Position numbers and translations under genes: made by a program. DNA of 40,288 nucleotides from Candidatus Obscuribacterales bacterium (lineage in GTDB: Bacteria; Cyanobacteriota; Vampirovibrionia; Obscuribacterales; Obscuribacteraceae). Location of the stretch: contig CBDDIJ010000006.1 of NCBI GenBank assembly GCA_965228855.1, positions 1 through 40,288 on the forward strand. Reading direction: 5' to 3'. Below the pieces are notes generated by a model. That model worked only from the letters and a program-made list of their open reading frames with translations, was not told where the DNA came from and made no database searches. Below, piece after piece: positions 15,638 through 39,824 of this stretch (position 1 is its first letter; each line of letters starts with the position of its first letter).

Positions 15638-15884
15638 ATGTCCTTACCAACTCTAAGGCTGTGTTACCCTCTGTTCCCCCAAGGGAATTTATCAATCGAA
15701 TGATCAAATCTTCAATAGCCGGATGCCCCCAAGTATCAACGAGTTTAGCTTGACCTCTCTATAAGGGTAAGCGAAAGATCGGCGAGCAAAATGCTCTAGC
15801 CGCGCTCAAGTTTGACGCTGCGAAGGTACTGAGTTTTTCTCATCGGGCTATAATCCTTACCCTGACGTGGATGCCTTTTTACTA

Positions 15885-16454: not shown

Positions 16455-16489
16455 TTCCGGCGGATGTCACGCTCCAGAGGGGAGTTGAA

Positions 16490-17551: not shown

Positions 17552-17554
17552 TCA

Positions 17555-18487: not shown

Positions 18488-18498
18488 AGGCAAGTAGT

Positions 18499-19600: not shown

Positions 19601-22600
19601 TTGGCCGGCGCGGCTAGCCCGCCATCAAGCAAGGTTGTTAGTCCGATGGGGGTAGCGAAGAGTGTGGCGAAAGTACGTGCCACTGACATAGCCATTGTCG
19701 GCATGTCCTGCCGGTTTCCCGGAGGATGCAATTCTCCGCAAGCCTATTGGGATTTGCTCGCTTCCGGCGGCAATGCCGTAAGCGAAATTCCAGCAGACCG
19801 TTGGGATCATTCCCGTTTCAAGCACCCAAACAAGAAAGCCAGCGGTCGCGCCTATACTTTCGCGGCGGGCACAATCGGAAATATTCGTGGATTCGATGCG
19901 GCCTTTTTCGGCATCTCCCCCCGTGAAGCCGATGCGATGGATCCGCATCAGCGAATGCTTCTCGAACTGGCATGGGAAGCGCTGGAATCCGGCGGGCAGA
20001 TCCCCGAACAATACGAAGGCAAAAACTGCGCGGTTTATGTAGGAATTTCGTCTACGGAGTACGGCTCCATACAACAAGGCGATTCCGACGGTGCGAATGC
20101 ATACATGATGCTTGGCACGACACTCTCGATCGCGGCCAACAGGGTTTCCTATCAATTCGATCTGCGCGGCCCAAGCATGGCCATCGACACGGCCTGTTCT
20201 TCTTCGCTTGTCGCGCTCAACGAAGCGCTCAATGCGTTGTGGGCGGGGCGCTCCGAAATGGCAGTGGTCGGCGGCATCAGCCTTCTTGTCAGTCCCTTTC
20301 CCTATGTGGGCTTTTCGAAGGCAACAATGCTTTCCGAGTACGGCCTCTGTCGGGCCTTTGGTGCCAATCCAGGTGGCTATGTTCGTGGCGAAGGCGGTGG
20401 CGTGGTCGTCATCAAGCCTCTCGCGGCTGCTTTGCGAGATGGCGACCCGATTCAGGCTGTAATTGCCGGGGCAGGCTCCAACGCCGACGGGCGCACAAAC
20501 GGCATCGCCCTTCCCTCCCATGAAACGCAGAGCGCGCTCATTGAGCAAACGCTCGCGAAATTCGACATAGATCCTGCGGATATAGACTTCTTTGAAGCAC
20601 ATGGCACGGGAACCGCCGTCGGCGATCCGGCCGAGAGCAAAACTATTGGGCACGCCATTGCCCAAAAGAGGCCCCCGGAACGCGGGCCTCTTCCCATAGG
20701 TTCAGCCAAATCCAATATCGGCCATCTGGAGCCCGCGTCCGGTATGGCCGGCCTTTTCAAAGCCGTGCTTGCAATTCGCAACCGCGCCGTACCGAAAACA
20801 CTGCACGCTGAGGAACTCAATCCCGACATCGACTTCGAGGGACTCAACATCAGTCCCGTGCAGCAGTTGATGCCGCTGCATGTCTCGGGGAGGCCAATAT
20901 ATGCCGGGCTCAATTCGTTCGGATTTGGCGGTGCCAATGCAACTGTGATCCTGCGCGAACACATGGAAGAAGCGCGCGAGACAGCGCATGGCGATACCAT
21001 CCCACCGCTTCTCCTCTCTGCCAAGTCTTCCGCCGCCTTACAGCAAATGGCGCAGCAATATGCTCATCTGCTACAGCAGTCGGCCGACAGCGAATTTTAT
21101 AACATCGCCCATACGTCCGCCTTCCGGCGCGCGCGCCTCAAGAACCGGCTGATCGTCGAAGGCGATAGCCGGATCGAGATAGCGGAAGCCCTTCATGCTT
21201 ATGCAGCAGGTGACGAAAGCCCTGCTGTTTCCGGAGAGGCATTTTCCCGCACAGGCAAGGTCGGCTTCGTTTTCAATGGCAATGGCGCGCAATGGGCTGG
21301 CATGGGCCGGAGGGCCTATGCCGAGAGCAATACATTCCGTATGCGGGTCGATGAGATTGGCTCGTTGATTGACGCAATTGCGGGATGGTCTCTTGTCGAA
21401 GTTCTCAACGCGGAAGATGCTTCAGAACAGTTACAGCGTACAGAGCTTGCCCAGCCTGCGCTGCTCGCCATTCAGCTTGCGCTTGTTTCCTGCCTTGCGG
21501 AACTTGGACTGAAACCCGATGCCGTTTCCGGTCACAGCGTGGGAGAGGTGGCCGCCGCTTATGTATCCGGGGCCATCGGGCTCGAACAGGCCGTCCGCCT
21601 CATTCTTGCAAGGTCCGACGCGCAAGGAAAAACACGTGGTCACGGGCGCATGGCTGCGGCAGGCCTTTCGCCAGAGCAGGCTCGAGAAATTGCGGAAGCG
21701 TCGGGCGGAAAGATAGAGCTTGCGGCGATCAACAGTCCGAGTTCCGTGACACTCGCTGGCGACGAGGAAGCGCTGGTTGCGCTTGGCGTTCGCATGGACG
21801 AGCAGAAAACATTCTATCGGGTACTCGATCTCGATTACGCTTTTCATAGCCATGTGCTTGATCCGGTGCGTGACTATTTTCTGGACGTGGTCGGAAAGAT
21901 CGACTGCACATCAACGCACACCCCTTTCTACTCGACGGTAAAAGGACGGAAAACATCGGGCGGGGAGCTCGGAGCTTCCTACTGGTGGGACAATGTGCGC
22001 AAGCCTGTCCAGTTCCAGGATTCTATCCTTGCGATGATCGAGGATGGCATCGATGTGCTGATAGAAATCGGTCCGCACGCAATTCTGCAGCCATATCTAC
22101 GCCAAATTCTTCGTGAGGCTGGACGCGAGAGTGTACCCATTCCCTCCTTCATGAAGACCGGAGATGGCTTGTCGGCTCTGAAGCGCGTACGCGACGTAGC
22201 GTTTTGCGCCGGTGCGTCAATCGACCTTGCACGTTTCTTTCCCGAGAAAGGCCGTTGCGTCCCACTACCTTCCTATCCATGGCAGCATGAAGACCACTGG
22301 CTTCACGCAACGCCGGAAGCCGAGGGACCGACTTTTCAGCACCGTGAGGGAGTTTTTCTCGGCGCGCGCGCGCAGCAAGGGCACGCAACCTGGGAAAATC
22401 AGGTCGACGCCGAACTTTTTCCCTTTCTCGCGGATCACAATGTTGGCGGATCCGTGGTCTTTCCCGCAGCGGGTTATGTGGAACTGGCGCTCGAGGCCGC
22501 AACAGCACTCTATAATGGCGAAGGCCGTGAAGTGGAGATGCTGGAAATCCGCAGACCAATTGTCTTCACCCGCGGGCAGGTAATAAACATTCGCCTTGTC

Positions 22601-25600
22601 CATGATGAGGACGACAAGGCTTTCCGCATCGAAACGCGCAAGCGGATGAGCGACGACCGTTGGTCAGTGAACGCCGTCGGCAGAATCGCGCCGGCTGTTT
22701 TCGAGGCGGCTGACGCACCTCAACCACGGGAAATAACCGGCGAGATGACGGAGGTTGACCGCGAAACTCATTACCAAATCGCGGCGGGGCTCGGTCTTGA
22801 TTATGGGCCGGCCTTTCAGACGGTGGACTCTATCAAGGTTTCCGACAACGACGCGGTGGTCATTCTCCGCTCGCCAGAGACAAAAGCCGGTGCTTCCTTT
22901 GTTCTTCATCCCTCCGTTCTCGACGGCTGCCTTCAGAGTCTGTTTTCGATTTTATTCGCGCAGGGCGTCAGGGAGACGAACGCTTACCTGCCTTATCAAG
23001 TTGGCCGCATAAAAGTATTTCAACCTCATACGGCAATCGTTCGTTGCGACACGCACCTTCGAGTGAAGACAGAGAAATCACTGGTCGCTGATTTCACCCT
23101 GTTTGACGATCGGGGGAATTGCGTTGCAGAGGCAACAGGCTTCCGCTTTCTTCGGGCTGATCTCAAGCAAGGCGCTGGTACAGGCGCACGCCGGTTCCGC
23201 TTCGAACTATTGCCGCTGGATCACGTAACACCGGAATGCGAGACCCCCGATGCGCTGGAAATCGCACAGGCACTTGATTTCAAAGAGCGCAACTCGGCCA
23301 CAGGCGGACACGCCGGACCCGACCTCGACGCGATCGCGGAAGATCTCTTTCACGCCCCCACTACTGAGTGTGTGACGCAAAATGGCGCGGGCAAGGTCGG
23401 CAATGATATGTGGCGAGATGCCTTCGCCCGATACCCGGCCTATCTCGCCGAACTCAACACACTGATGCAACGCAGCTTCCTCCGCCCAGGTGAGGAGCTC
23501 AATATCGAGCTTCGGGATCACCTGCTGGACAGTTCGCCGAGCCTTGCCCCCGCCCGCGCCTTGCTGAAGGATGCGCTGACGGCTATTGCGGCGTCATGGC
23601 CTTCGAACCGAAGAATCCGTATTCTCGAAATCGGTACTGCGAATTCTATCGTCCGCGAAATCAATTCCATCGGCGCAAAGGGGACCGTCGACTACACGAT
23701 CGTTTCTGAAGATGCCGAGCGGGTCGAAAGCCTCGGCATGGAAATCGAGAATGGCGATGTGCGGTTCCTTCATATGGATTTCGCAGGTCTTCTATCAGAA
23801 GCCGACCAAAAGAAACTCGGCTGCTTCGATGTGGTGATCTGTCCCCTGCCCGCTGCTTCGAGCGGTATCACGACCATGCTGCGCGCAAATGTTCGCGATG
23901 TGCTCGTACCCGGCGGCCTTCTGCTAATTTCCGAGCCTGTTCCCGCGCGTTGGGTCGACTTCGCTCTACACGGATACGAGGCGAACGGCGACCATGTGAA
24001 GGCGCTTCCACCGGGGGCTCTTTCGACACTACTTGCCGACGACGGGTTTTTGAACATTCAAACAACGCAGGCCGGATGCGGCAGTGTCATCGTTGCCGAC
24101 GCCCCTCAACCGCGTGAAATGCGGCAGGCCTCCCCTCGCTCGGCGATGGACGCAGTCGGAACTGGCTGGCTTGTGGTTTTCGATCCGGCATCGGAAGATG
24201 CTGCTTGCGCCCAGATGGTATGTGAGGCCCTACAGAATTCGGGCGCAATTGCCATCGAAGCCCACGCTCGAACTCACGACGGGTCCGGTGGCGAGGCGGC
24301 CCTTATGCTCGACCCGGATGTCGAGGATCAGTGGGCAGAAACCTACGAAGCGATCTCTGCGACCGGCATCGATCTGAAGGGTGTCGTATTGATCGGAAGC
24401 ATTTCCTCCGATGCGCGGCCAGGCTGGAGCACACTTCTTGCTGCACGGGCAATGTCGAAAATGGCGTTCGACCCGATGCCTCGTCTCCACATCGTCACGA
24501 TGAATGCATCCAGCTTCCGTTCAACCGGTCAAGTGAACCTCGTGCAGGCACCACTTTGGGGTATCGGCCGCGTGATCGCGAACGAAGTCCCGAAATCTCG
24601 CACGCGCATGATAGACATGCTTGGGGCACCACATGAGAGAATAAAGCTAGCTTCCAGGCTCGCCGCTTCCCTTCTCGAGATTGAGGCTGAACCGGAAATC
24701 GTTATCGGAAGCGACGGTATTTTTGCGCCTCGTTTGCGTGTGGCGGACGCACAGTATAACGAAGAAGGCGGTGCGCAAAAGCTGTGCTTTACATCTGGTC
24801 GTCTTGGTTCGCTGGCGTGGACGTCGGTGTCCATTCCTGTTCCAGGACCTGACGATATTGTCGTTGCGCCGAGAGCCGCTGGGCTCAACTTCCGCGATGT
24901 GATGTATGCGCTTGGCGTACTTCCGGAAGAAGCTCTCGAAGCCGGATTTGCAGGTGCGAGTCTGGGCATGGAAGCGGCGGGCATCGTCGTCGCAACTGGC
25001 AAGGATGTAAAAAGCTTTCAGACAGGTGACGAGGTCATCTGTTTTGCGCCCCACTGTTTCGACAGCCATATCGTTACGCCTGCAAAAGCAGCCGTTCACA
25101 AACCTCGGCAAATCGGCTTTGAGGAAGCTGCGACGATCCCCACGGCCTTTTTCACTGTGCAATACGCGCTCGAATATCTGGCGCGGACACGCAAAGGCGA
25201 ACGCGTTCTGATTCACGGCGCGGCAGGCGGCGTAGGTCTTGCTGCCATACAAGTTGCGCAACACCTCGGTGCCGAAATCTTCGTTACTGTCGGCACCACG
25301 GAGAAGCGCCAACTTGTCATGAAACTCGGCATCCCTGCCGACCGAATTTTCGATTCGCGTTCACTACACTTCGCAGATGACATCATGCATGTCACGAATG
25401 GCGAAGGCGTGGATGTCGTACTCAATTCGCTTGCAGGGGAAGCAATCTATCGCAATCTCGGCTTGTTGCGTCCGTTCGGGCGGTTCCTTGAACTGGGCAA
25501 ACGCGACTTCTACGAAAACAATCGCATTGGCCTGAAGTTCTTTCGCAACAATCTCACCTATTTTGGTATCGATGCCGACCAATTGATGGTCGAACGTCCG

Positions 25601-27016
25601 GAGCTCGCACAGGATCTTTTCGCGGATCTCATCAAACGTTTCGAGGATGGCATCTATACCCCACTTCCCTATCGCGCCTTTGACGCAGCGCGCATTTCGG
25701 ATGCGTTCCGGCTGATGCAGAAATCGGGGCATACAGGCAAAATCATCGTGCGCCCTCCACTTGCGCCGGTTCCATCCTTACGCCGCCAGCATCCCGATTT
25801 CACGGTTCGACCCGATGCCTCGGTCTTTGTTTCCGGCGGCTTGTCCGGCTTTGGCCTCGCTACCGCACGCTGGTTCGCGGCCAAGGGTGCCGGTGGCCTG
25901 GTGCTCGCGGGCCGCTCCGGTCCTTCGAGCCCCGAAGCCAAGCTGGCTGTCGCCGAACTCGAAGCTCTCGGCGTTAAAGTCATTGCGCGCGCCTGCGACG
26001 TTACAAACATTGATTCCGTTACAGCGCTTTTCGATGAAGCAGAAAGCGCGGGGGTGCCCGTACGAGGAATTATCCACGCCGCCGCTGTGTTCGACGATGC
26101 AACACTCGAATCTCTGAGTTCGAACCAGTACCAGCGGGTCATTGAACCGAAGATTCTGGGCGGACTTACGCTTCACAATGCGAGTCTCGGACGTGAAATC
26201 GATTTCTTCGTCTTCTATTCTTCAATTACGACTGCATTCGGCAATCCGGGACAGGCGAACTACGTTGCAGCCAACAGCTTCCTTGAAGCGCTGGCACAGC
26301 ACCGGCGCGCCCAGAATCTACCTGCACAAGCGATCGGCTGGGGAGCTATTGGTGATGCCGGCTACCTTGCTCGGAATGAGACAATCCGAGATCAACTCGC
26401 AGCGAAACTCGGTGCCGATCCGCTGACTACAGACGGCGCCATGGCATTCCTCGAGGAGCTCCTTTCTGGCGGGCAGACGAATCTTTATGCCGGTGATATC
26501 AATTGGCAACGACTGCGCTCCGGCCTCCCCACACTTCAATCGCGGATTTATGGTGAGGTGACAACAAAAGCCGGAAGAGAAGAAGCGGTAGATGGCGAGG
26601 ACGCTCTCGCCCGCATACAGCACATGTCACCCGCAGAAGCTCTGGAGTTCGTCGCGGTTATTCTCTCTGAGGAGGTAGGGCAAGTCCTTCGGCTTGCTCC
26701 GGAAAAGATCGACAGAAATAAACCTGTGTTCGATCTTGGTATGGACTCACTGATGGCACTCGAATTGAAGCTGAGCATGGAAGATCGCTTCCAGATAGAC
26801 GTGCCTGTTATGGCACTTTCCGACGGCGGCACTATCAATCGGCTCGCCGAACAGGTTGTCCGGCAGGTTCGCGGGGGTGACGTCGAAGAAGAACTCTTGC
26901 CTAACGGAGTTCAGGCAATTATTTCCAGACACGTCAACGATGACGACATTGAAAATCTGAACCGTACAGAAGACACTGGCGGCAGTTCCTCTGACAAAAT
27001 GCAATTTGGCACGTGA
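19601..27016 (+). CDS. wcbR: Single-module reducing type I polyketide/fatty acid synthase, KS-AT-DH-(pseudo-MT)-ER-KR-ACP, WcbR/RkpA-like
   Basis: KS: DTACSSS, EAHGTGT, KSNIGHLE. AT: GHSVG, YAFHS. DH: HNVGGSVVFP, HPSVLDGCLQ. ER: LIHGAAGGVG. KR: GGLSGFG, VFDD, YVAAN. ACP: GMDSL. No thioesterase. Start uncertain (TTG 19601 or ATG 19646). The symbol is assigned from architecture and kps context. Confidence 0.93.
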   Translation: MAGAASPPSSKVVSPMGVAKSVAKVRATDIAIVGMSCRFPGGCNSPQAYWDLLASGGNAVSEIPADRWDHSRFKHPNKKASGRAYTFAAGTIGNIRGFDAAFFGISPREADAMDPHQRMLLELAWEALESGGQIPEQYEGKNCAVYVGISSTEYGSIQQGDSDGANAYMMLGTTLSIAANRVSYQFDLRGPSMAIDTACSSSLVALNEALNALWAGRSEMAVVGGISLLVSPFPYVGFSKATMLSEYGLCRAFGANPGGYVRGEGGGVVVIKPLAAALRDGDPIQAVIAGAGSNADGRTNGIALPSHETQSALIEQTLAKFDIDPADIDFFEAHGTGTAVGDPAESKTIGHAIAQKRPPERGPLPIGSAKSNIGHLEPASGMAGLFKAVLAIRNRAVPKTLHAEELNPDIDFEGLNISPVQQLMPLHVSGRPIYAGLNSFGFGGANATVILREHMEEARETAHGDTIPPLLLSAKSSAALQQMAQQYAHLLQQSADSEFYNIAHTSAFRRARLKNRLIVEGDSRIEIAEALHAYAAGDESPAVSGEAFSRTGKVGFVFNGNGAQWAGMGRRAYAESNTFRMRVDEIGSLIDAIAGWSLVEVLNAEDASEQLQRTELAQPALLAIQLALVSCLAELGLKPDAVSGHSVGEVAAAYVSGAIGLEQAVRLILARSDAQGKTRGHGRMAAAGLSPEQAREIAEASGGKIELAAINSPSSVTLAGDEEALVALGVRMDEQKTFYRVLDLDYAFHSHVLDPVRDYFLDVVGKIDCTSTHTPFYSTVKGRKTSGGELGASYWWDNVRKPVQFQDSILAMIEDGIDVLIEIGPHAILQPYLRQILREAGRESVPIPSFMKTGDGLSALKRVRDVAFCAGASIDLARFFPEKGRCVPLPSYPWQHEDHWLHATPEAEGPTFQHREGVFLGARAQQGHATWENQVDAELFPFLADHNVGGSVVFPAAGYVELALEAATALYNGEGREVEMLEIRRPIVFTRGQVINIRLVHDEDDKAFRIETRKRMSDDRWSVNAVGRIAPAVFEAADAPQPREITGEMTEVDRETHYQIAAGLGLDYGPAFQTVDSIKVSDNDAVVILRSPETKAGASFVLHPSVLDGCLQSLFSILFAQGVRETNAYLPYQVGRIKVFQPHTAIVRCDTHLRVKTEKSLVADFTLFDDRGNCVAEATGFRFLRADLKQGAGTGARRFRFELLPLDHVTPECETPDALEIAQALDFKERNSATGGHAGPDLDAIAEDLFHAPTTECVTQNGAGKVGNDMWRDAFARYPAYLAELNTLMQRSFLRPGEELNIELRDHLLDSSPSLAPARALLKDALTAIAASWPSNRRIRILEIGTANSIVREINSIGAKGTVDYTIVSEDAERVESLGMEIENGDVRFLHMDFAGLLSEADQKKLGCFDVVICPLPAASSGITTMLRANVRDVLVPGGLLLISEPVPARWVDFALHGYEANGDHVKALPPGALSTLLADDGFLNIQTTQAGCGSVIVADAPQPREMRQASPRSAMDAVGTGWLVVFDPASEDAACAQMVCEALQNSGAIAIEAHARTHDGSGGEAALMLDPDVEDQWAETYEAISATGIDLKGVVLIGSISSDARPGWSTLLAARAMSKMAFDPMPRLHIVTMNASSFRSTGQVNLVQAPLWGIGRVIANEVPKSRTRMIDMLGAPHERIKLASRLAASLLEIEAEPEIVIGSDGIFAPRLRVADAQYNEEGGAQKLCFTSGRLGSLAWTSVSIPVPGPDDIVVAPRAAGLNFRDVMYALGVLPEEALEAGFAGASLGMEAAGIVVATGKDVKSFQTGDEVICFAPHCFDSHIVTPAKAAVHKPRQIGFEEAATIPTAFFTVQYALEYLARTRKGERVLIHGAAGGVGLAAIQVAQHLGAEIFVTVGTTEKRQLVMKLGIPADRIFDSRSLHFADDIMHVTNGEGVDVVLNSLAGEAIYRNLGLLRPFGRFLELGKRDFYENNRIGLKFFRNNLTYFGIDADQLMVERPELAQDLFADLIKRFEDGIYTPLPYRAFDAARISDAFRLMQKSGHTGKIIVRPPLAPVPSLRRQHPDFTVRPDASVFVSGGLSGFGLATARWFAAKGAGGLVLAGRSGPSSPEAKLAVAELEALGVKVIARACDVTNIDSVTALFDEAESAGVPVRGIIHAAAVFDDATLESLSSNQYQRVIEPKILGGLTLHNASLGREIDFFVFYSSITTAFGNPGQANYVAANSFLEALAQHRRAQNLPAQAIGWGAIGDAGYLARNETIRDQLAAKLGADPLTTDGAMAFLEELLSGGQTNLYAGDINWQRLRSGLPTLQSRIYGEVTTKAGREEAVDGEDALARIQHMSPAEALEFVAVILSEEVGQVLRLAPEKIDRNKPVFDLGMDSLMALELKLSMEDRFQIDVPVMALSDGGTINRLAEQVVRQVRGGDVEEELLPNGVQAIISRHVNDDDIENLNRTEDTGGSSSDKMQFGT

Positions 27017-28386: not shown

Positions 28387-28400
28387 AGGCCTCGTGTGCC

Positions 28401-28748
28401 TTATAGGCCGACGACTGTGTTCCAGCCATTGCTGGTAAGGCACACGGCACTTACCTGTGTCTTGCGAAGAGTTGTGTCGGTCAGGATGACGCGCTTGCAA
28501 CGGTCACCCGCAGCGGAAATATACTCTGCGCCGACATGTACCCGTGCTTGAGAACCCGACGCCATTCTTACAACACCGGTCGCACCGTGAGAGACACCAG
28601 TGGCATATGCCGCCACGGGATCGCCTGGGGCAGCGGGCACAATAGCTGCATCCTGGACTGGCATGGAGGCAGACCCCGTATTGTCCATTGTCGCGCAGCC
28701 AGCGAGAACAACACAAAGCCAAGCCAAAAGAACCGGCTTCACTGTCAT
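28401..28748 (-). CDS. Small lipoprotein (115 aa) with a surface-antigen-like C-terminal domain
   Basis: MTVKPVLLAWLCVVLAG|C lipobox, Ala/Pro linker, and a C-terminal YISAAGDRCKR..AVC...GW Cys pair. ATG at 28748 preferred over 28853, which overlaps the upstream gene. Confidence 0.75.
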   Translation of the reverse strand: MTVKPVLLAWLCVVLAGCATMDNTGSASMPVQDAAIVPAAPGDPVAAYATGVSHGATGVVRMASGSQARVHVGAEYISAAGDRCKRVILTDTTLRKTQVSAVCLTSNGWNTVVGL

Positions 28749-28830
28749 GTTTCGTCCGGACAATTTCATCTTCGAACCCCTCATTTCCCAGCAGCAGCAA
28801 GACGCAAGCTTAGCACACAACGTTTCCATT

Positions 28831-29886: not shown

Positions 29887-29894
29887 CGGTGAAC

Positions 29895-31646: not shown

Positions 31647-32869
31647 ATCCGCGCGTGCTCCCTAATTGCAGCCCCGATCAACATCAGAAGGCCGTATGCA
31701 AGCAGTCCCCCTAGAAGGAACGAAACGATAATCAACAGCCGCTCGGGCTTGGAAGGATCTGCCGGCAAGGATGGTTCGACGAAAGCCACAAGATAGGCTT
31801 GCTTTCGATTGGCATCCGCCCTGGCGATCTCAAGTGCCGAGATGGCCGATGTATAAGCGGATTTTGCGAACTCTTCCTCGATCATCAATCTTTCGTATTC
31901 GGCCAGAAGATCCGAGTAAGTGAGGGAAGGGGTTTCCTCGGTGTTTGTCAGCCTGCCACGCTCCGCTCTCATCTGTTGTTCGATGGCAGCAATGCGGGCT
32001 TTTACGCCAGCGATCTGAGGGGCATCCTCGCGCATATAGCTGCGAAGCGACGCCAGCTCTGTCTTGTAGCGCGAGAGTTCTGCCTCAAGGCTCGCAACGA
32101 TACCTCCGATAGAGGCTGCCGCACTCACCGGATCGAGTTCGCCGTGTTCTTCCCGGAAGCGGTAAAGCACCAACCGATTTTCGCGTAGCCGATCCTCGGC
32201 AAGGGTAACCTCTTCCCGGGCAAACTTGACCGCATCCTGCCGTGATTCCTGCGAAATACGATTGACCATGTCGTCGCTCAGACGAACGATGGCTGCTGCA
32301 ATCTTCTTCGCATCTTCCGGCCGGTAGGCCTGAACTTCGAGATGAACCACATTTGCGGTCGAGTCGAAATAGACCTCGATGCGATCCAGATAATAATCGT
32401 AGAGGTCGTCCATGCTCGCGTCAGCGGGCAGGCGGGACAACATGTCCGCTTCAGGTACCAAGTAGAGTGATCTTAGGTCGAAGTCATCCTGCAGCTTGGC
32501 GACGAGTTCACGCGACTGAACATATTCCTGAACTACATAGCCGTCGATCGCCCCAGGGTTAGCACCAAGAGACCCCAGCAACCCGCCGAACGCCGTCGCG
32601 ATCTGCGCTTCGCTCGAGCGAACCGTCATCAAGGACTGGGAGACATAGCGGTCGGAGGCCCAAAGCCCGTAATAGACCAACGCAAGGACGGTCGGCACGA
32701 CGACGATGGCGAAGAATAGAAGCTTGGAAATTCCGAGCTTCATTACTTCAGTAACTTCGTTCTCGATAAATGGGCGTGCTTTCTCGCGAACAAACCTGCG
32801 CGCTTTTGTCAGCGCTCCATCTTCTCGAAGGAGGTAATCGAAGCGGTTTTTAAAGGGTTCGTAACTCAT
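31643..32869 (-). CDS. kpsE: Capsule export inner-membrane adaptor (PCP-3)
   Basis: Two terminal TM helices, ASDRYVS, YVQSRE, a long coiled coil and YLVAFVEPSLP..PER. The ATG at 32869 forms an ATGA overlap with the kpsT stop. Confidence 0.92.
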   Translation of the reverse strand: MSYEPFKNRFDYLLREDGALTKARRFVREKARPFIENEVTEVMKLGISKLLFFAIVVVPTVLALVYYGLWASDRYVSQSLMTVRSSEAQIATAFGGLLGSLGANPGAIDGYVVQEYVQSRELVAKLQDDFDLRSLYLVPEADMLSRLPADASMDDLYDYYLDRIEVYFDSTANVVHLEVQAYRPEDAKKIAAAIVRLSDDMVNRISQESRQDAVKFAREEVTLAEDRLRENRLVLYRFREEHGELDPVSAAASIGGIVASLEAELSRYKTELASLRSYMREDAPQIAGVKARIAAIEQQMRAERGRLTNTEETPSLTYSDLLAEYERLMIEEEFAKSAYTSAISALEIARADANRKQAYLVAFVEPSLPADPSKPERLLIIVSFLLGGLLAYGLLMLIGAAIREHARI

Positions 32870-33522
32870 GGCGCGCACTTTCGCGTGTAAAAATCAATTG
32901 CTTCGTCAATATCGCCAAAAGGCACGAGAAAGCCTTCATACAGCACCATACCAATCTCGCAATATTCGCGGACTGTTGTCTCGTTATGCGAGACCAGAAG
33001 CATCCCCGCCCCTTCCGATTGTTCAAGGAAAACCTGCCGCGATTTTTGCCTGAAGAACCTGTCCCCTGCGCCAATACTCTCGTCGATCAGATAACACTCG
33101 AAGTCGATTGCCAGACTCAAACCAAAAGCCAGGCGAGACTTCATACCACTGCTGTAGGTTCGAACTGGCATATCGACATAGGCACCGATTTCGGCAAAAT
33201 CTTCCGTCTTCTCGAATATCTCGTCATAGTCGGCGCCATATAGCCTTGCAACGAAGGCGATGTTCTCGCGCGCCGTCAGATCGCCATGAAAGCCCCCTGC
33301 GTAGCCGAGCGGCCAGGACATGCGCGCCTCGCGGATAATCATGCCTGTGCTCGGCCGGTCCACACCCGCAATCATATTCAGAAGAGTGGTCTTGCCTGCT
33401 CCGTTGCGTCCGAGCACACCGACACGCTTGCCCGTCGGAATGGTCAGATTGGTCTCCCGCAGCACCCGCTTGAAGCCGATATCGGTGTTGTAATGCTTCG
33501 ATATGCCGACCAGATGGATCAT
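32866..33522 (-). CDS. kpsT: Capsule ABC transporter ATP-binding protein
   Basis: Walker A GRNGAGKT, SWPLG, signature YSSGMKSRLAFG, Walker B YLIDE and VSH; 218 aa with no C-terminal carbohydrate-binding extension. Confidence 0.96.
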   Translation of the reverse strand: MIHLVGISKHYNTDIGFKRVLRETNLTIPTGKRVGVLGRNGAGKTTLLNMIAGVDRPSTGMIIREARMSWPLGYAGGFHGDLTARENIAFVARLYGADYDEIFEKTEDFAEIGAYVDMPVRTYSSGMKSRLAFGLSLAIDFECYLIDESIGAGDRFFRQKSRQVFLEQSEGAGMLLVSHNETTVREYCEIGMVLYEGFLVPFGDIDEAIDFYTRKCAP

Positions 33523-35345
33523 CGTTCCAGCACCTTGTGCCGCAAAGCCCGATCAGCGATGAGCCCCAAGGCGAATATCGCAATGGCCCACATATAGCCA
33601 TATGAGATATCGACCCTGCTGCCTCCCATCAACGGATTAAAATTACCGCGCACACCGTCGACAAAATGCAGCAACGGATTATAAGCCGCATACTCAGCGA
33701 CTTTCGCCGGCATCATGTCGAGTGTGAAGAAAACACCCGAGGTGATGTAAATGATCCTGTTGAAGCCGGTCATGATATTCGGCAGTGACTCGAGGTGAAC
33801 CACCAGCGAACCTACGAGCAGCCCCATGCCAATGCCGGCTATCCACAAGCCAAACAGATTGGCGAAAACCGAAGAAATATTGCCAAAGCGATATTGCTCG
33901 ACAACAAAGTAAATAGCCGCCGCAAAAACAATCAATACAAGCAGCTGCGTGAAAAATTCGAGTACAGCGCGCGCCAGGAATATGTCCATAGGCTGCACTG
34001 ATGCATGATTGAGCAAAGGCCGGTTTTGCCTCAACGCATTCATCATCGAGCTATAGGTTTTCAGATAAAAGAAAAGAGGAATGATGCCTGTGGCTACAAA
34101 GAGAACGACATTCATTCCAAGCGTATCTCTCATCCTGATGTAGTAGAAGATGAAAGAAAGAACGGTGACATGAATTAGCGGTTCTATAATCGCCCAGAGG
34201 TAGCCGAGGTCATGACGTCCGAAACGCGCCATGGTTTCGCGCAAGATGATCGTTCGCACTGAATGTCCGAGAGCACGAACGGCGTGGAGCGTATTTCCGC
34301 TTTTCTGTATCAGCTCAGATGTCCACCGCGGAGTAAATTCGGGAGGAATATTGCTCAGACGATAGAAGAGCTCGGCATCCTCCATCGGATTCTGTTTAAT
34401 CTTTCGTTTGAGACGCTTCGCCCCCTTTTTGCCCGGTCGCGCTTCTGCGATATCTTTTGCCGATAGACCAAGCTCTCCAATCAGGGCGGGCAGCTTCTCC
34501 TCCCCAACATTTGCCAGAACCTGCGCCGCTTCCTGTTTTCGTCCGGCGGCGACCAGGCACCGCCCCAGCATCTCCCGGCCTTCCATCCAACCGGGATCGA
34601 CTTTCAGCAGCTTTTCGATCGAGGAAATCGCATCGACAGATTTCCCCTCGTTGTAAAGACAGCGGCAAACGATGCGCTGGAGAGGAAGATTGCCGCGCTC
34701 GACGTCAAGCCCCTCCTTCGCGGCCTCTTTAGCCGTCTCCCAGAGGCCCTGGTCATAGCAACGCTGTGCAAACTCGCGTATCCGTTGGACGCTTGCACCA
34801 TAGCTGCGCGCGGCGCGCTGCACCCAGCGGCCCGCGATTTCTGCATTTCCTGCGCGCCAAGCGATCCGAATACCGATATCCACGAGAGAGGCGGGGTCTT
34901 CACCAAACTTCAAGTTAGCCTTGAAACAGCGCAATGCGTCTTGCGGTTGGCCACTCGCGGCGAGGAACCGCGCCTTGAGCAGAGACATCTCTCGGGCCGC
35001 TTCGTCGGGGGCCAGGCTGATCGCGCTATCCAAAAGGCTCAAGGCTTTGGAAAAATTCCGCGATAGCCCATGAAAAAGAGCCCGCAGATAGAAGATACGC
35101 CAACCGCGAAAACCGCGCTCGAATGCCAATTCGACCAAGGAGAGGCCGAGCGCGAACTCATGCCGGTCTCGCAGCCGATCGGCGAGCCACCAAATACTTT
35201 CCAAAGGAGGCTCGAAAGAAGCGCCTTCACGCAACGCCGCAATAGCGACATCGACCGCATCCGCCTCCCTGCCCGCAGCATAGAGACGGGAGAATTCATT
35301 CGTCGGCTCCCAGAGCCTCCGATCGCCGGCCGCCTCAATACTCAC
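33519..35345 (-). CDS. kpsM: Capsule ABC transporter permease KpsM fused to an N-terminal TPR-like helical region
   Basis: The C-terminal ~260 aa have ILRETMARFGRHDLGYLWAIIEP, about six TM segments, SGVFF and YNPLLH. The N-terminal ~340 aa contain TPR-like helices (ALSLLDSAISLAPD, AISSIEKLLKVDP, MLGRCLVAAGRKQEA). GTG start with a GGGAG SD. Confidence 0.9.
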   Translation of the reverse strand: MSIEAAGDRRLWEPTNEFSRLYAAGREADAVDVAIAALREGASFEPPLESIWWLADRLRDRHEFALGLSLVELAFERGFRGWRIFYLRALFHGLSRNFSKALSLLDSAISLAPDEAAREMSLLKARFLAASGQPQDALRCFKANLKFGEDPASLVDIGIRIAWRAGNAEIAGRWVQRAARSYGASVQRIREFAQRCYDQGLWETAKEAAKEGLDVERGNLPLQRIVCRCLYNEGKSVDAISSIEKLLKVDPGWMEGREMLGRCLVAAGRKQEAAQVLANVGEEKLPALIGELGLSAKDIAEARPGKKGAKRLKRKIKQNPMEDAELFYRLSNIPPEFTPRWTSELIQKSGNTLHAVRALGHSVRTIILRETMARFGRHDLGYLWAIIEPLIHVTVLSFIFYYIRMRDTLGMNVVLFVATGIIPLFFYLKTYSSMMNALRQNRPLLNHASVQPMDIFLARAVLEFFTQLLVLIVFAAAIYFVVEQYRFGNISSVFANLFGLWIAGIGMGLLVGSLVVHLESLPNIMTGFNRIIYITSGVFFTLDMMPAKVAEYAAYNPLLHFVDGVRGNFNPLMGGSRVDISYGYMWAIAIFALGLIADRALRHKVLER

Positions 35346-35457
35346 CGGATCAATACTCCCATCACCACGCTCGCCTCAAAATCGGCATAGCGCATATCCC
35401 AAACTCGTAAACCGGCTTGTCGTCGCCGGATTGCGATCTCGCCCCCGAGATCTATGG

Positions 35458-36810
35458 CTATGGCCGGGGTGCGTCCCCCGGGCGCGCCTCTCGGCATCCA
35501 TCCGGCCGACGGGCCCCGGAGTTCTCGCGAACAGATGATGCGTCGGTTCTGACTTCCATGCCGGCCACCGAACACCCGGCAACCGGAGAACCCGCAACGC
35601 CTTCGCATCGCGGCAAACCGAAACGAGCAATCGCATTCCTGATAGCGAGCCCCATACCCTGATCGGTATAGTAGTCGCCATTTATCAGGCTTTCACGCCT
35701 CAAATAGCGCAAAAAAGCGGAAAAATGCGCAGGGTCGGGCCGCGTGGGAGACTGCCAGAAAGCTCTCAGTTCCCCCTTAAAAGTAAGGCCAGGCAGGTCA
35801 AAGATGGCCTTGCCGAGGCAAATGAGGGGACATCCGGCTTCGAGTGCGGTCAATCCCACCGTGCTGTTGAGGATAACCGCGCCCTGGGCATGGCGAAGCA
35901 GGAGATTGAGGTCACCGCCATCGATAAAATCGACACGAACCAAAACGCCGTGCCGCTGGGCTATGGCCTGCGTCCGGCGCCTGAAATTGACCCACCCATT
36001 GTCGAGAGGGTGCGCCTTCACGACAAGCCGGTCATTCTTCTGCGCGTACGCGGCAAAACTGCCTATTACCTCTTCGAGCGCTTCCGTCATCCCTGCAAAA
36101 GGGGAATGTACTTTCACCTGCGAATCTGTGTCGAGTTGCATGGGAAAGACGAAATAGCGCTGCCCTTGCGATACGAGCTGACTCACCGTTTTCCGGGCCT
36201 GCCGTTTGCGAAACGGCAAAACGGCAAGCCGCTTGAGCCAAGTCGCATATTCCGCCCAGATCGGAAATGGCCGGTGCGTGCGGAACCGTGGATAACGAAG
36301 CAAAAGCAGATAGTTCCAAATCTGCCACTGGAAGTCGTAGATCACCCGCCGCTTCATTCCTGAAGGCAGGCTTACGAAATCCGATTCCTCTCCGGCATTG
36401 TCGTTGGCACTTTCAAGGTGCACGGCCATGCTGTTCATAAGTGGCGAATGACCGTTGATGCCGCCCTCTTCGAGGGTAAGCCAATGCGGCCGCATGTAAC
36501 CTTCCTCAAACACCCAGATCCGGCATCCAAGATCGCGAACCGCATCAATTGCACTACGGTGCCCCGGACGGCAATCATTGTGGAGAACGATATCGGTGAT
36601 GCTGTTTGCAACAACATGGTCGCGAACAAAATCCCCCAGCCGGGCAGGTGCCCCTTTGAAATCGACAGCGTTCCAGTTTCCCCAGAAGTACCAGTCGCCG
36701 CCGGACATATTGATGCGCGAGACCCCGTAGCCGCTTTCGGCCAAGGCTCCCCCGAGCGCCCGAAAGAAATGGCTGCTATTGCCCTGAAGAAAAAGGAATT
36801 TCCTGCTCAT
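35458..36810 (-). CDS. kpsS: Capsule glycolipid Kdo transferase KpsS (RkpJ/WcbO/LipB-like)
   Basis: FLFLQG..FF, RINMSGGD, DCRP.H, VFEEGYMRPHWLTLEEGGING.S, FPMQLDTDSQ, VKAHPLD and NSTVGL. Confidence 0.92.
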   Translation of the reverse strand: MSRKFLFLQGNSSHFFRALGGALAESGYGVSRINMSGGDWYFWGNWNAVDFKGAPARLGDFVRDHVVANSITDIVLHNDCRPGHRSAIDAVRDLGCRIWVFEEGYMRPHWLTLEEGGINGHSPLMNSMAVHLESANDNAGEESDFVSLPSGMKRRVIYDFQWQIWNYLLLLRYPRFRTHRPFPIWAEYATWLKRLAVLPFRKRQARKTVSQLVSQGQRYFVFPMQLDTDSQVKVHSPFAGMTEALEEVIGSFAAYAQKNDRLVVKAHPLDNGWVNFRRRTQAIAQRHGVLVRVDFIDGGDLNLLLRHAQGAVILNSTVGLTALEAGCPLICLGKAIFDLPGLTFKGELRAFWQSPTRPDPAHFSAFLRYLRRESLINGDYYTDQGMGLAIRNAIARFGLPRCEGVAGSPVAGCSVAGMEVRTDASSVRENSGARRPDGCREARPGDAPRP

Positions 36811-38414
36811 GGAGCATCCTTAATCTGACCGATGCCCGCCGCTCGCGGCGCATTCACGGTCTCGTCGTCCGGCCTGGTCTGGGCGGCTGAAAAAGTCTCC
36901 AGAAGCAGACGGTTCAGGGCATCTGCACTTGCGTTTACGCTGCGCCCATCCACCGGTCCGCCACTCAGCCAAACGAAATAGTCGGTCCTGGGATCGTCAA
37001 ACCCGATTGACGTAAACAATTTAGGCATGCTCGGAAGGTGGTCGCCATAGAAGCAGAAGATGGATTTCCGCCTGGAGGAAAGCAGCATATTCCGTATTCG
37101 GCCTATCATCCGATCGGCATTCTGCAGATGTGCCAGATACTGCGCGAAGGCGTTGGATTTGACGGGCGGCGCCGACCTCAACTCCGGCGGGACTTCAATC
37201 CGAGGCTTTTTCCAGGGACCGTGGTTTTCCATCGTGATGGCAAAAACGAAAATCGGCGCCGTTTCGTCTTTCACAAGAGCTTCAATCTTGTCGGCCACGG
37301 CATTGTCCGACACGTAAGGCCCAACCCGATCACCCTCGTTGAAGTCGTCGATATCTATGAACTCGTCGAATCCCAGGTGAGGATAAACCTTGTCGCGCCG
37401 GAAAAACGATTTGTGAAAAGGATGAATACAGATCGTGCGGTAACCAATGCTGCGGAGATAGGTTGCCACTGTCCATACCGGCTTGTCGCAATATTTCAGA
37501 TATGGATTAAAACGATCGACGCCGAGCGCCTCGTCGGGAATACCCGACAGGAAAGCAAACTCGGTGCGGAGGGTGTTCGCGCCCCAGGCAGGGACCCGCA
37601 GACGGCCGAGATATCTCGCCTCATGGCACATCGTGCTGAAGTTCTGCATAAATCCCTGAGGCACGTTTTTCAAAATCCGCCGGGCATCGAAAAACGATTC
37701 ACTCTGGACGACAACGACGTTCGGCAGACCGGGGCGCTGTCCAACGGGACGGGCCCGGTCCTCTTCCTCGTTTTCGCGCGACTTGGCGACAGCAATTTCC
37801 TGCTCCCCGGCCAGGAGGAAATAGAAAATCAGCGTGGTGACAAGGCTCAGCTTGTCGACGTCTTCCCGGACATCGGTCGAAGCGCCGAATTGCTTAAGAA
37901 TGTCGCGGAATTCGTTTCGCAGCGGCCCCCGTGTGATCGCGTAAATCAGCCCGATAACGACGGAAAAATAGGCGAGCGTGGAAAACCATTCCGCGGGCGT
38001 GTCGCGGTCGATTACCGGGGGCTCATATATCAGCGAGCCGAATATTACGGCGGCCCCTGCCAGAATTACCGCAGCGACCTTGAATGGGCCGATATAGGTG
38101 ACGTAAAGCGCCGGATGAGCGATCGCCTGCCTCAGCAATGCGAAATCAGAATAGACCAACGGTTCGCGAAGCTCGCGAAACTTGGCGTTATTGACGATGA
38201 CGATGCCGAGGAAAAAGATAATGCCAAACACGGTGGCGAAAACCGGCCGATAGGTGGCCATGAATACCGAGAGATAAAACACGATCATCGGCATAGCCGA
38301 GAGCATGCTCACTCGATGAAAGACCGGCCTTCTCGAGCGTTGCGGCTGAATGAAACGCTCAAGCACCAACACGATCGCGAAAGCGATCAGAAAACCGGCA
38401 AGACCGGCAATCAT
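36807..38414 (-). CDS. LTA synthase / phosphoglycerol transferase family membrane protein (alkaline phosphatase-sulfatase fold), WcbQ/RkpI-like
   Basis: N-terminal TM helices with NNAK..LREPLVYSDF; catalytic domain VVQSESF, WGANTLRTEF (Thr nucleophile position), TMENHGPW and YGDHLP. ATGA overlaps on both sides. Confidence 0.88.
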   Translation of the reverse strand: MIAGLAGFLIAFAIVLVLERFIQPQRSRRPVFHRVSMLSAMPMIVFYLSVFMATYRPVFATVFGIIFFLGIVIVNNAKFRELREPLVYSDFALLRQAIAHPALYVTYIGPFKVAAVILAGAAVIFGSLIYEPPVIDRDTPAEWFSTLAYFSVVIGLIYAITRGPLRNEFRDILKQFGASTDVREDVDKLSLVTTLIFYFLLAGEQEIAVAKSRENEEEDRARPVGQRPGLPNVVVVQSESFFDARRILKNVPQGFMQNFSTMCHEARYLGRLRVPAWGANTLRTEFAFLSGIPDEALGVDRFNPYLKYCDKPVWTVATYLRSIGYRTICIHPFHKSFFRRDKVYPHLGFDEFIDIDDFNEGDRVGPYVSDNAVADKIEALVKDETAPIFVFAITMENHGPWKKPRIEVPPELRSAPPVKSNAFAQYLAHLQNADRMIGRIRNMLLSSRRKSIFCFYGDHLPSMPKLFTSIGFDDPRTDYFVWLSGGPVDGRSVNASADALNRLLLETFSAAQTRPDDETVNAPRAAGIGQIKDAP

Positions 38415-39238
38415 TTTTCCCCTCTTCCGGTGCCAGCCGCCGCTGGGCGCCCCTTAGCCCCTCTGCGAGAAATCGTAAAAGCAAAGGCAGGCATGATCAA
38501 GAGCGCCAGGCGCTCCGGCAAGACATTCAGAAGCCTTATTCCCACCGATAAAACAAGGGGATAGGACATGCGTGCGGGGTTCCCGCGAAGGGCCTTCCTT
38601 ATGCGCATTGCGATATCGTCCGGTGTCGTCAAAAACGGCTTTCGCCCGCTCAATTGCTGACTCATCCGGGTTTCTACATAACCGAGACTTATAACGTTGA
38701 CGCGGACACCCCGGGAGCCGAGAAGCCGCCTCAGAGACAGAAGATAGGTCTCAAATCCCGCCTTCGCGGCGCTATAGGCCGGACAGGATGGCATGGGAGT
38801 TAACGCCGCAAGCGAGCCTATTCCGGCGATCTGCCCCTCACCCCTCAATGCCATGACGTTGGCAAGCGGCCCGATACTCCTGAGGGCGCCCATGAAGTTG
38901 GTCTCTGCCACCTGCTCTGCGGTATCCCAGGGTTCGAGCCCATCTGCTTCCGAAACACCGGAGGTGACGCCGGCGCAGACGATCAGGAGGTCTACGGGGT
39001 GCCTCCGGTCGAAACCGAGGATAACGGCTTCCGTTTCCTTCGCGGTGACATCCGCCACAAGCTTTTCCGTGGAAGCGCCCAGAGCACGGCATTCCTCTTC
39101 CACCTGCTTGAGCCGTACTTCGTCGCGTCCAAGCAGACCGAGCGTTATGCCCGGTGCCGCGTAGGCCCTTGCCAGCGCGGCCCCTATGCCATCGCTCGCT
39201 CCGGTAACCAGTACGACTTCGGGATTTTTCCACCCCAT
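38411..39238 (-). CDS. Short-chain dehydrogenase/reductase, WcbP/RkpH-like
   Basis: VTGASDGIG, ADVT, TNF.G, S...YSAAK catalytic motif and GYVET. Confidence 0.9.
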   Translation of the reverse strand: MGWKNPEVVLVTGASDGIGAALARAYAAPGITLGLLGRDEVRLKQVEEECRALGASTEKLVADVTAKETEAVILGFDRRHPVDLLIVCAGVTSGVSEADGLEPWDTAEQVAETNFMGALRSIGPLANVMALRGEGQIAGIGSLAALTPMPSCPAYSAAKAGFETYLLSLRRLLGSRGVRVNVISLGYVETRMSQQLSGRKPFLTTPDDIAMRIRKALRGNPARMSYPLVLSVGIRLLNVLPERLALLIMPAFAFTISRRGAKGRPAAAGTGRGEK

Positions 39239-39239
39239 A

Positions 39240-39824
39240 TCAGGTGAGCAGGGTCTGCAGCAGCAACATGGGTTCCGTATGCCTCAGTGCGTTCGACGGC
39301 GGAATCGGGATGCGTTCTACGCATTCAAAGCCCTTGGCCGTGTAGAGGCTGAGAGCGGTCGTGTTGTCCCCCCAGGCATGGAGGGTGAGGCTTTCGTAAT
39401 TGGCACCGCGTGCAAGTTCTGCGGCGAAATCCAGAAGCAACCCTCCGACGCCTTGTCCGCGGGCACCCTCATTCACGGCGAGCGTATTGATATAGAAGCT
39501 GTTCGGGACATGGGTGGTGAAGAGCGGCAAAACCGGATCGAGACGTTCGGGCGGCAAAACGCTATAGGCGATTTCGGGCAGACCGATTTGCTCAGCCGGG
39601 AAAGCGATCAGACAGCCTCTGATCTCGCCACCATCTTCGACGAGATAGGCATTCTCGAAATGATAGGGGCTGTCTTCATCGCCGACGGCAAGGCCGAGCG
39701 CGTCGATAGCTGTGAGTCCCGGGTATGCATCTTCAAACAGATGTTCAAAGAGACCTTCGCCTGCCATAAGCAGAAACCGGACGAGTTCGTCACGGTCGGT
39801 CGCCATACCAATTCTAACGTCCAT
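39240..39824 (-). CDS. GNAT family N-acetyl/acyltransferase
   Basis: FYINTLAVNEGARGQGVGGLLL (motif A) and DNTTALSLYTAKGF; GAGG SD; its stop lies 1 nt before the SDR start. Confidence 0.88.
   Translation of the reverse strand: MDVRIGMATDRDELVRFLLMAGEGLFEHLFEDAYPGLTAIDALGLAVGDEDSPYHFENAYLVEDGGEIRGCLIAFPAEQIGLPEIAYSVLPPERLDPVLPLFTTHVPNSFYINTLAVNEGARGQGVGGLLLDFAAELARGANYESLTLHAWGDNTTALSLYTAKGFECVERIPIPPSNALRHTEPMLLLQTLLT

Follow-up and report, generated by a model that had tools for sequence, protein, structure and literature searches.

What do the polyketide synthase (PKS) genes of capsule loci make, and on what lipid does the capsule of such a locus begin? We addressed this question in a stretch of 40,288 bp (here called the window), the entire contig C6 of an assembly filed under Candidatus Obscuribacterales (G000), using a listing of open reading frames (ORFs) together with Pfam and NCBIfam scans. 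On the plus strand, a PKS without a thioesterase is coupled to an alpha-oxoamine synthase (AOS). Converging on this pair is a minus-strand run in which genes for a GNAT acyltransferase, a short-chain dehydrogenase/reductase (SDR), an LtaS-family protein and KpsS precede kpsMTED, an arrangement that the initial annotation had read correctly. Our tentative reading, to which we give slightly less than an even chance, is that this ABC-transporter-dependent capsule locus carries an rkp-1/wcb-type module whose product would be a phosphoglycerol lipid built on an N-acetylated long-chain amino alcohol and used by KpsS to start the capsule. The six genes at issue are the following.

19601..27016, plus strand: iterative type I polyketide/fatty-acid-like synthase of RkpA/WcbR type, 2471 amino acids, by Pfam domains (TTG start set by ORF calling alone)
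27013..28386, plus strand: pyridoxal phosphate (PLP)-dependent AOS of RkpG/WcbT type (Aminotran_1_2, 146.5 bits)
39240..39824, minus strand: single-domain GNAT acyltransferase of 194 amino acids, predicted N-capping enzyme (Acetyltransf_1, 43.5 bits)
38411..39238, minus strand: classical SDR of RkpH/WcbP type, predicted ketoreductase (adh_short, 124 bits; TGxxxGxG and YxxxK motifs)
36807..38414, minus strand: LtaS-family membrane phosphotransferase of RkpI/WcbQ type, with five strong transmembrane helices and an alkaline-phosphatase-fold domain (Sulfatase, 125.5 bits)
35458..36810, minus strand: KpsS-type single-domain homologue of the Kdo (3-deoxy-D-manno-octulosonic acid) transferase, RkpJ/WcbO type (Capsule_synth, 233.7 bits against a cutoff of 20)

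A connection between the PKS, AOS, SDR, LtaS-like and KpsS genes of the rkp-1 and wcb loci and a capsule "lipid carrier" has been drawn since the 1990s. The lipid-pathway idea is itself long-standing for these loci; what gains real comparative support from the gene neighborhoods below is a role for the GNAT. We take wcbQ, wcbP, wcbO, wcbR and wcbT to be the gene names for these functions, which matter for rhizobial symbiosis and for the capsule-dependent virulence of Burkholderia. In the portions available, one source (PMC4881576) holds the rkp-1 products to make or modify the lipid carrier for the K antigen or capsule, worded as a "lipid carrier involved in secretion", and a sponge PKS study counts WcbR/RkpA as an established class of PKS associated with capsule loci (PMC3908369). 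By gene content the window holds such a module: a release-less single-module reducing PKS, a coupled AOS, and adjacent SDR, LtaS-family and KpsS genes. The initial annotation had assigned this set to the rkp-1/wcb type, and the same set indeed occurs in Sinorhizobium and in Caballeronia. It had also known of no resolved product, and the full-text literature we searched gives none for the rkp-1/wcb PKS genes.

The five proteins are alike in Sinorhizobium rkp-1, where Sinorhizobium sp. K101 (L104) has the order PKS-AOS-SDR-LtaS-KpsS. In the window, by contrast, the module is spread over two convergent operons, shares one locus with kpsMTED and has the GNAT first, whereas the Sinorhizobium locus showed neither a GNAT nor a formyltransferase. 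The two LtaS-family proteins share about 30% identity. The module of Burkholderia wcb is also alike, and Caballeronia insecticola p2 is annotated SDR-LTA synthase-PKS-LpxC-like (UDP-3-O-acyl-GlcNAc deacetylase)-aminotransferase-KpsD-M-T-E. This Burkholderiaceae form has an LpxC paralogue between the PKS and the AOS, with no GNAT seen in the stretch covered.

The PKS contains ketosynthase (residues 28-403), acyltransferase (556-872), dehydratase (924-1184), enoylreductase (1749-2050), ketoreductase (2073-2251) and acyl carrier protein (ACP; 2355-2417) domains. The ketosynthase motifs DTACSS and HGTGT and the acyltransferase motifs GHSVGE and YAFH are present, as are the enoylreductase and ACP motifs, and the spacer between dehydratase and enoylreductase is a degenerate methyltransferase-like stretch. 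No thioesterase or reductase release domain of the PKS had a Pfam match. The AOS start overlaps the PKS stop by 4 nt. We propose that the iterative PKS would assemble an acyl chain, long and saturated, on its ACP and that the AOS would condense this chain with an amino acid, releasing a 2-amino-3-keto lipid; release by the AOS would explain the missing thioesterase. Fum8, which releases a PKS chain in fumonisin biosynthesis, offers a parallel, since there too a thioesterase-less reducing PKS is coupled to a PLP-dependent oxoamine synthase, although the product there is a fungal secondary metabolite and here would be an envelope lipid.

The solved structures nearest the AOS are 8s1y and 7poa (AOS/KBL) and the bacterial serine palmitoyltransferase (SPT) 3a2b. 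Its NCBIfam bioF score of 333.7 bits is under the cutoff of 426, and it lies below all SPT cutoffs (NF047600, 285.6 against 640; NF047599, 264.4 against 500; NF047603, 195.8 against 670 bits). The AOS thus does not reach these SPT equivalog models, and the GNAT has a weak rimI match (29.7 bits) and otherwise no NCBIfam model, with no ceramide-synthase model seen among its matches. The term sphingoid-like, used in the initial annotation, is therefore kept here as an analogy only.

Does the GNAT belong to the module? Sixteen LtaS-family proteins were aligned and one genome per species was scanned. Of the 571 stretches found to encode a relative, the 80 best loci were used. The window's proteins were mapped onto the ORFs of these 80 loci by phmmer, with profiles added; counts for the AOS are limited to the stretch fetched around each LtaS-family gene. 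The SDR adjoins the LtaS-family gene in 72 of the 80 loci and KpsS does so in 60, frequencies that show the arrangement not to be due to chance, and an AOS lies inside the fetched stretch in 35. A GNAT orthologue (264-324 bits) is present in 16 loci, directly upstream of the SDR in 15 and of the LtaS-family gene in one, a Dongia locus with no SDR seen. The 16 are titled Parvibaculum, Rhodobiaceae, unclassified alphaproteobacterium, Novispirillum, Rhodospirillaceae, Dongia, Magnetospirillum molischianum and Sneathiella. In Magnetospirillum molischianum (L027) the module is collinear, in the order PKS-AOS-GNAT-SDR-LtaS-KpsS. Four alphaproteobacterial loci that cover the position (L022, L023, L031 and L055) lack a GNAT orthologue, and three loci (L014, L019 and L029) end at it. 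In two alphaproteobacterial loci, a large subtilase-family gene (801 and 935 amino acids) stands between the SDR and the LtaS-family gene (L021:7430-9835 and L091:10855-13662).

Where does the window come from? Records named Parvibaculum or Parvibaculaceae hold the closest relatives of both the GNAT (up to 91% identity) and the LtaS-family protein (up to 90%). A contig of a Parvibaculum metagenome-assembled genome (MAG), L011, matches the window at 99.07% identity across 13,480 bp, and the tetranucleotide usage of C6 correlates at 0.96 with L011 vs. 0.66-0.88 with the other contigs of G000. Contig C6 is thus probably Parvibaculum-type DNA wrongly binned into G000, so G000 was not taken as the genomic background. 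A GNAT search in 40 relatives of G000 returned no match better than E 3e-6; this absence also speaks for mis-binning, and it makes these genomes uninformative on synteny.

We also searched an evenly drawn sample of 401 alphaproteobacterial genomes (the unpublished G284 counts as just one). An LtaS-family match reaches E ≤ 1e-40 in 12 of them. Just three of the 401, those with the cluster, score above 200 bits with the GNAT profile (G041, G089 and G087, all at least 235 bits). These three hold the strongest LtaS-family matches of the sample, and in them the GNAT lies upstream of the SDR. The next-best GNAT matches (92-152 bits) fall in genomes without the module, among unrelated neighbors (G100, G401, G128 and G142 included). 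A word-indexed search had returned 19 close relatives, suggesting a lineage-restricted gene, an idea that the profile searches of the loci overturned.

In other lineages, unrelated enzymes occupy the same slot. Among the 35 loci with an AOS, 13 have a GNAT orthologue, 13 have a Formyl_trans_N protein, none has both and nine have neither; the GNAT orthologue occurs in three further loci without an AOS in the fetched stretch. The formyltransferases (252-328 amino acids) belong to beta- and gammaproteobacterial loci and number 15 among the 80 in all, two of them without an AOS in the fetched stretch. Their genes follow the PKS-AOS pair with gaps of at most 12 nt or a 1-nt overlap. FNQ, HPSLLP and D-x-G are kept in 7/7 aligned sequences, and we take these motifs to hold the catalytic Asn, His and Asp. 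The nearest solved proteins are amine formyltransferases, namely GDP-perosamine formyltransferase, ArnA (59.6 bits) and FMT. The nine loci with neither enzyme comprise two cut at the LtaS-family gene, L044 with a 2-oxoacid_dh-type (E2-type) acyltransferase in the capping slot, L048 with an alpha/beta hydrolase, and five showing nothing. We found no description of this alternation between GNAT and formyltransferase in full-text searches.

Further variants place N-acyl transferases elsewhere in the module. Alphaproteobacterium G418 has KpsS-SDR-formyltransferase, and G443 has a different GNAT directly after the LtaS-family gene. In Azonexus a GNAT lies just upstream of KpsS and overlaps its start. 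On a Pseudomonas plasmid an annotated GNAT overlaps the LtaS stop (SDR-LTA synthase-GNAT); the annotation there reads two capsular proteins, SDR, LTA synthase, GNAT, capsular protein and phytanoyl-CoA dioxygenase, converging on an aminotransferase and a PKS. Locus L082 encodes a single 781-amino acid protein with an LtaS-family domain followed by a GNAT domain. Phytanoyl-CoA dioxygenase-family genes also stand next to AOS or module genes in three unrelated loci (L099:5548-6456, L103:18211-19254 and L060:11636-12808), and their products may hydroxylate the lipid.

A deacylase also keeps company with the module. Ten of the 94 loci examined carry an LpxC paralogue, six of them Parvibaculum-type, and in this respect the Parvibaculum locus resembles the Burkholderia form. 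Such paralogues are present in L011, L012, L013, L015, L016, L018, L034, L036, L037 and Caballeronia. In L011 it lies at 5747-6721 on the minus strand (270.5 bits), about 1.4 kb past the window's right end and divergent from the GT2-GNAT operon. The Parvibaculum genome G041 holds a separate, better-scoring housekeeping LpxC (344.4 bits). The LpxC family acts on a lipid-linked N-acetyl group. Pairing an N-acyl transferase with a deacylase recalls the Arn pathway, in which ArnA and ArnD mediate N-formylation followed by deformylation during aminoarabinose addition to lipid A. ArnA's formyltransferase domain is a relative of the formyltransferases in the module, and the amidase that co-occurs with them suggests a similar cap-and-uncap logic. 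The substrates here, however, would be lipid amines rather than sugar nucleotides, and the deacylase belongs to the LpxC family rather than the ArnD family.

What would these enzymes act on? With three unrelated N-acyl transferase families and an amidase in the module, the most economical reading of the comparison is that the amine left by the AOS receives an N-cap, which some lineages later take off. The GNAT is described less well as a local oddity or a ceramide synthase than as a member of a set of short-acyl capping enzymes that can replace one another. Its AlphaFold2 model has GNAT topology at a mean confidence (pLDDT) of 95.4, the CoA-binding motif R/Q-x-x-G-x-G/A is conserved as RGQGVG, and at least 500 GNAT structures match in a fold search, the nearest being the uncharacterized acetyltransferases 1u6m and 4m85. 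The cap is more likely a short acyl group than a second long chain, and an acetyl group is expected because elsewhere formyl is the alternative and because the GNAT, a protein of one small domain, has small acetyltransferases as its nearest structures. Several proposals of the initial annotation can be judged at this point. Its suggested check, co-occurrence of the GNAT with these loci, found the gene syntenic elsewhere, so that the idea withstands the refuting condition set there. Its view of the GNAT as an addition peculiar to this locus does not hold, as the gene recurs in 16 of the 80 loci and gives way to other N-acyl transferases in other lineages. N-acylation as the task of the GNAT fits the other N-acyl transferases of the module insofar as an amine is modified, whereas a long second chain is less likely than a short cap. 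Its caveat that the 194-residue protein may be only an acetyltransferase agrees with these nearest structures and with formyltransferases as substitutes.

We suggest that the GNAT would attach a short acyl cap, probably acetyl, to the amine, with the formyltransferases as equivalents in beta- and gammaproteobacteria, and that the SDR would then reduce the ketone. The initial annotation had put reduction before N-acylation. Gene order in Magnetospirillum molischianum and the published order of ceramide synthesis agree on the reverse, and this analogy suggests that capping comes before reduction. Bacterial ceramide synthesis proceeds, in the part of the source available, from Spt condensation through N-acylation to reduction (PMC11087976). 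The two routes would work alike in using an oxoamine synthase, an N-acyltransferase and a reductase (Spt, bCerS and CerR) in that order. By the model scores above, however, the enzymes of the window do not come out as orthologues of those three, the acyl donor would be a PKS-bound chain and the cap is probably short. CerR, as described there, is periplasmic, while the SDR of the window has no signal peptide.

On which side of the membrane does the LtaS-family enzyme work? By sequence, the nearest solved proteins are GacH, LtaP and LtaS (best 5u9z, 63.8 bits). Its AlphaFold2 model (pLDDT 78.9) matches GacH at Z 30.8, LtaP at 26.0 and LtaS at 24.8, with sulfatases at or below 22.5. The NCBIfam lipoteichoic acid synthase equivalog is not reached (31.4 bits, cutoff 970). 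E239, T281, D458 and H459 are invariant in the 16 aligned LtaS-family sequences, and may correspond to the catalytic residues of LtaS. The solved entries matched in the fold search contain soluble domains only and give no membrane side. A hydropathy script found five strongly hydrophobic helices and no N-terminal tail in 16/16 aligned members; loops 1 and 3 are positive in all of them (3-6 Lys/Arg each) and loop 4 is acidic. The LtaS and GNAT domains of the L082 fusion follow each other without an intervening hydrophobic segment, and a GNAT requires acyl-CoA. This fusion supports a domain link and a shared compartment, not a capsule role. Taken together, these features suggest a cytoplasmic catalytic domain (N-out, five helices) as somewhat more probable than a periplasmic one, with some doubt left by a sixth segment in alphaproteobacterial members that is described below. 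A cytoplasmic domain would allow the enzyme to act before KpsS. To our knowledge, a cytoplasm-facing enzyme would be a first for the LtaS family.

The predicted cytoplasmic enzyme would move glycerol phosphate from phosphatidylglycerol to a hydroxyl of the capped lipid, giving a phosphatidylglycerol look-alike. KpsS would add Kdo to it. As no KpsC was found, chain extension would fall to further glycosyltransferases of the locus, and export to KpsMTED. The LpxC paralogue that lies beside the locus in the near-identical Parvibaculum contig L011 may later strip the cap. The comparative pattern yields four predictions: the amine is N-capped, the cap is short, the LpxC paralogue may remove it, and the phosphoglycerol step is cytoplasmic. 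A broader claim, that many proteobacterial ABC-type capsules are anchored by an N-formyl or N-acetyl 2-amino-3-hydroxy polyketide lipid with glycerol phosphate instead of phosphatidylglycerol, made cytoplasmically by an inverted LtaS-family transferase and primed by KpsS, with capping enzymes and an LpxC deacylase tuning the amine, is one we consider doubtful on balance. If true, it would answer which product the PKS genes of rkp-1 and wcb give. The available part of a 2026 review gives phosphatidylglycerol-Kdo and Vi-type anchors only (PMC13721041).

Four rival accounts compete with this reading. The amino-lipid may be no retained anchor at all but a separate membrane lipid or a transient export carrier, with GNAT, formyltransferase and LpxC forming a protect/deprotect cycle like that of ArnA and ArnD. 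The recurrence of LpxC paralogues with the module, including the one just past the window's end, fits such a cycle, as does the second, housekeeping LpxC that G041 keeps, and the wording of reviews already quoted speaks of a carrier (PMC4881576). In the available part of its source, WcbS of B. pseudomallei is likewise listed as LpxC (PMC13192269). The head-group chemistry of KpsS and LtaS-type enzymes would suit a role as acceptor or anchor, and nothing in the data separates carrier from anchor. We consider a carrier rather unlikely. Under a different scheme, KpsS starts on ordinary phosphatidylglycerol and the polymer is exported; a periplasmic LtaS-family enzyme then moves polymer-Kdo-glycerol-phosphate from diacylglycerol to the hydroxyl of the polyketide amino-lipid. 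Such a swap would suit the solved or characterized relatives (GacH, LtaP, LtaS and EptC), all of which act outside the cytoplasm and cleave a phospholipid head group. It would also suit a sixth segment (189-209 here), moderately hydrophobic in the ten alphaproteobacterial members (score 1.4-2.0), which would make the domain periplasmic. Of the six beta- and gammaproteobacterial members, however, five score only -0.7 to 1.0 in this segment and are not hydrophobic there. The GNAT fusion, which lacks an intervening helix and whose GNAT domain needs acyl-CoA, also speaks against it, and it is KpsS, not KpsC, that is tied to SDR-LtaS across the 60 loci, suggesting that KpsS uses the product of the module. 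We judge the swap quite unlikely.

The nature of the cap and even its target can be disputed as well. If the GNAT were ceramide synthase-like, it would add a second long acyl chain and give a two-chain phosphoglycerol anchor. This parallels the Spt-bCerS-CerR logic, as far as the accessible part of that source goes (PMC11087976), agrees with the GNAT lying between AOS and SDR in L027, and could draw on the E2-type acyltransferase of L044, whose family is able to move longer acyl groups. Formyltransferases, which transfer one carbon only, nevertheless fill the slot in 15 of the 80 loci. The 194-residue GNAT is nearest to small acetyltransferases, with the weak rimI match alone in NCBIfam, and family scans found no acyl-CoA ligase or additional ACP in the window. 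A long second chain thus seems to us distinctly improbable. Alternatively, the GNAT may have nothing to do with the lipid and may acetylate a capsule sugar or another substrate, keeping its operon company by chance or co-expression. GNATs are common in polysaccharide loci, distant relatives sit in unrelated contexts and the fold search gave no substrate clue, which also counts against our own assignment. Its place beside SDR or LtaS is, on the other hand, kept across loci with differing sugar genes, family scans found no aminotransferase or amino-sugar genes in the window, and elsewhere the LtaS-family protein is fused to a GNAT and the formyltransferase is coupled to the AOS or SDR. We regard a role on sugars as very unlikely.

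Other points weigh against the N-acetylated phosphoglycerol lipid that we favor. The pathway chemistry is inferred throughout from genes, domains and synteny. The topology call comes from a simple hydropathy script, and characterized LtaS-family enzymes have extracytoplasmic catalytic domains; a periplasmic domain would clash with a step ahead of cytoplasmic KpsS. Six of the 35 AOS loci and rhizobial rkp-1 show no N-acyl transferase, so capping is not universal, and the choice between GNAT and formyltransferase largely tracks phylogeny (alpha vs. beta/gamma), which means that the events are not independent. No capsule genes were recognized around the L082 fusion. The source itself is an uncultured and probably mis-binned contig.

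The remainder of the minus-strand run encodes capsule export and accessory proteins:

39814..40287, minus strand: GT2 glycosyltransferase, C-terminal 157 amino acids, cut by the contig end (the full 600-amino acid gene in L011 has Glycos_transf_2)
33519..35345, minus strand: KpsM ABC-2 permease with an N-terminal tetratricopeptide repeat (TPR) region, 608 amino acids (ABC2_membrane 363-569; TPR families 83-283)
32866..33522, minus strand: KpsT ABC ATPase (ABC_tran; polysaccharide-export ATPase models)
31643..32878, minus strand: KpsE-type inner-membrane export protein (TIGR01010 BexC/CtrB/KpsE, 291 bits against a cutoff of 437.5)
29895..31646, minus strand: KpsD-type outer-membrane polysaccharide export protein (Poly_export and SLBB domains)
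28831..29886, minus strand: GT1-like glycosyltransferase (weak Glyco_trans_1_4, 24.7 bits, below cutoff)
28401..28853, minus strand: small predicted lipoprotein (LAGC lipobox), the final gene of the run (no Pfam match)

The run is read in the order GT2, GNAT, SDR, LtaS-family, KpsS, TPR-KpsM, KpsT, KpsE, KpsD, GT1-like and lipoprotein. Neighboring genes stand 1 nt apart or overlap by 4 to 23 nt, save two larger gaps of 112 nt between KpsS and KpsM and 8 nt between KpsD and the GT1-like gene. The GNAT stop and the SDR start are 1 nt apart, SDR/LtaS and LtaS/KpsS overlap by 4 nt each, and KpsM/KpsT, KpsT/KpsE and KpsE/KpsD also overlap. With KpsM and KpsT, KpsE, KpsD and KpsS all encoded, the locus is by gene content an ABC-transporter-dependent capsule system. 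The families of KpsE and KpsM are clear although both score under their equivalog cutoffs (KpsM 125 bits against 300, covering residues 362-597), and KpsS likewise stays below its own (249 bits against 600). The TPR region, the GT1-like and lipoprotein genes after KpsD, and the GT2 fragment at the contig end had been missed in the initial annotation. The TPR extension of KpsM, about 350 amino acids, recurs in Parvibaculum-type loci, and KpsM is short in beta- and gammaproteobacterial loci. Homologues of the lipoprotein follow the GT1-like gene in Parvibaculum loci and precede KpsD in Sneathiella.

KpsM, KpsT, KpsE, KpsD and the KpsS homologue are common to the window and to the group 2 systems of E. 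coli and Neisseria. The window differs in its PKS lipid module and the TPR extension of KpsM, and in that no KpsC was found in it. In the available text of the 2026 review, KpsS and KpsC make the Kdo linker on a phosphatidylglycerol terminus (PMC13721041). KpsC has two Capsule_synth domains; PF05159 gives one gene each in G000, two Parvibaculum genomes (G041 and G042) and a Sneathiella chinensis isolate (G044), with KpsC not found in any of them and MAG completeness not established. A two-domain KpsC is present in Magnetospirillum molischianum and several beta- and gammaproteobacterial loci. If its absence here is real, the Kdo linker would be one residue, with another transferase taking over. 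The GT1-like gene is a candidate for that transferase because it is conserved, being kept with the module in alphaproteobacteria and placed after KpsD in Parvibaculum loci, and because it also adjoins the GNAT in L021 and L091.

Upstream of the PKS on the plus strand lie rmlC, rmlB, rmlD and rmlA (15867-19368). By family scans, the left third of the window codes for sulfotransferases, methyltransferases and glycosyltransferases, and for one large multidomain protein:

7741-15597, minus strand: single ORF of 2618 amino acids joining sulfotransferase, GT2 and GT1 domains to an alginate-lyase-family domain at the C terminus (248.9 bits)

This ORF is flanked by individual genes for sulfotransferases, methyltransferases and glycosyltransferases. 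This gene content suggests that the capsule is sulfated, methylated and rhamnose-containing. A Sneathiella locus without the GNAT (L031:1600-4484) carries CysN/CysC-like and PAPS-reductase-family (sulfate activation) genes directly upstream of its SDR.

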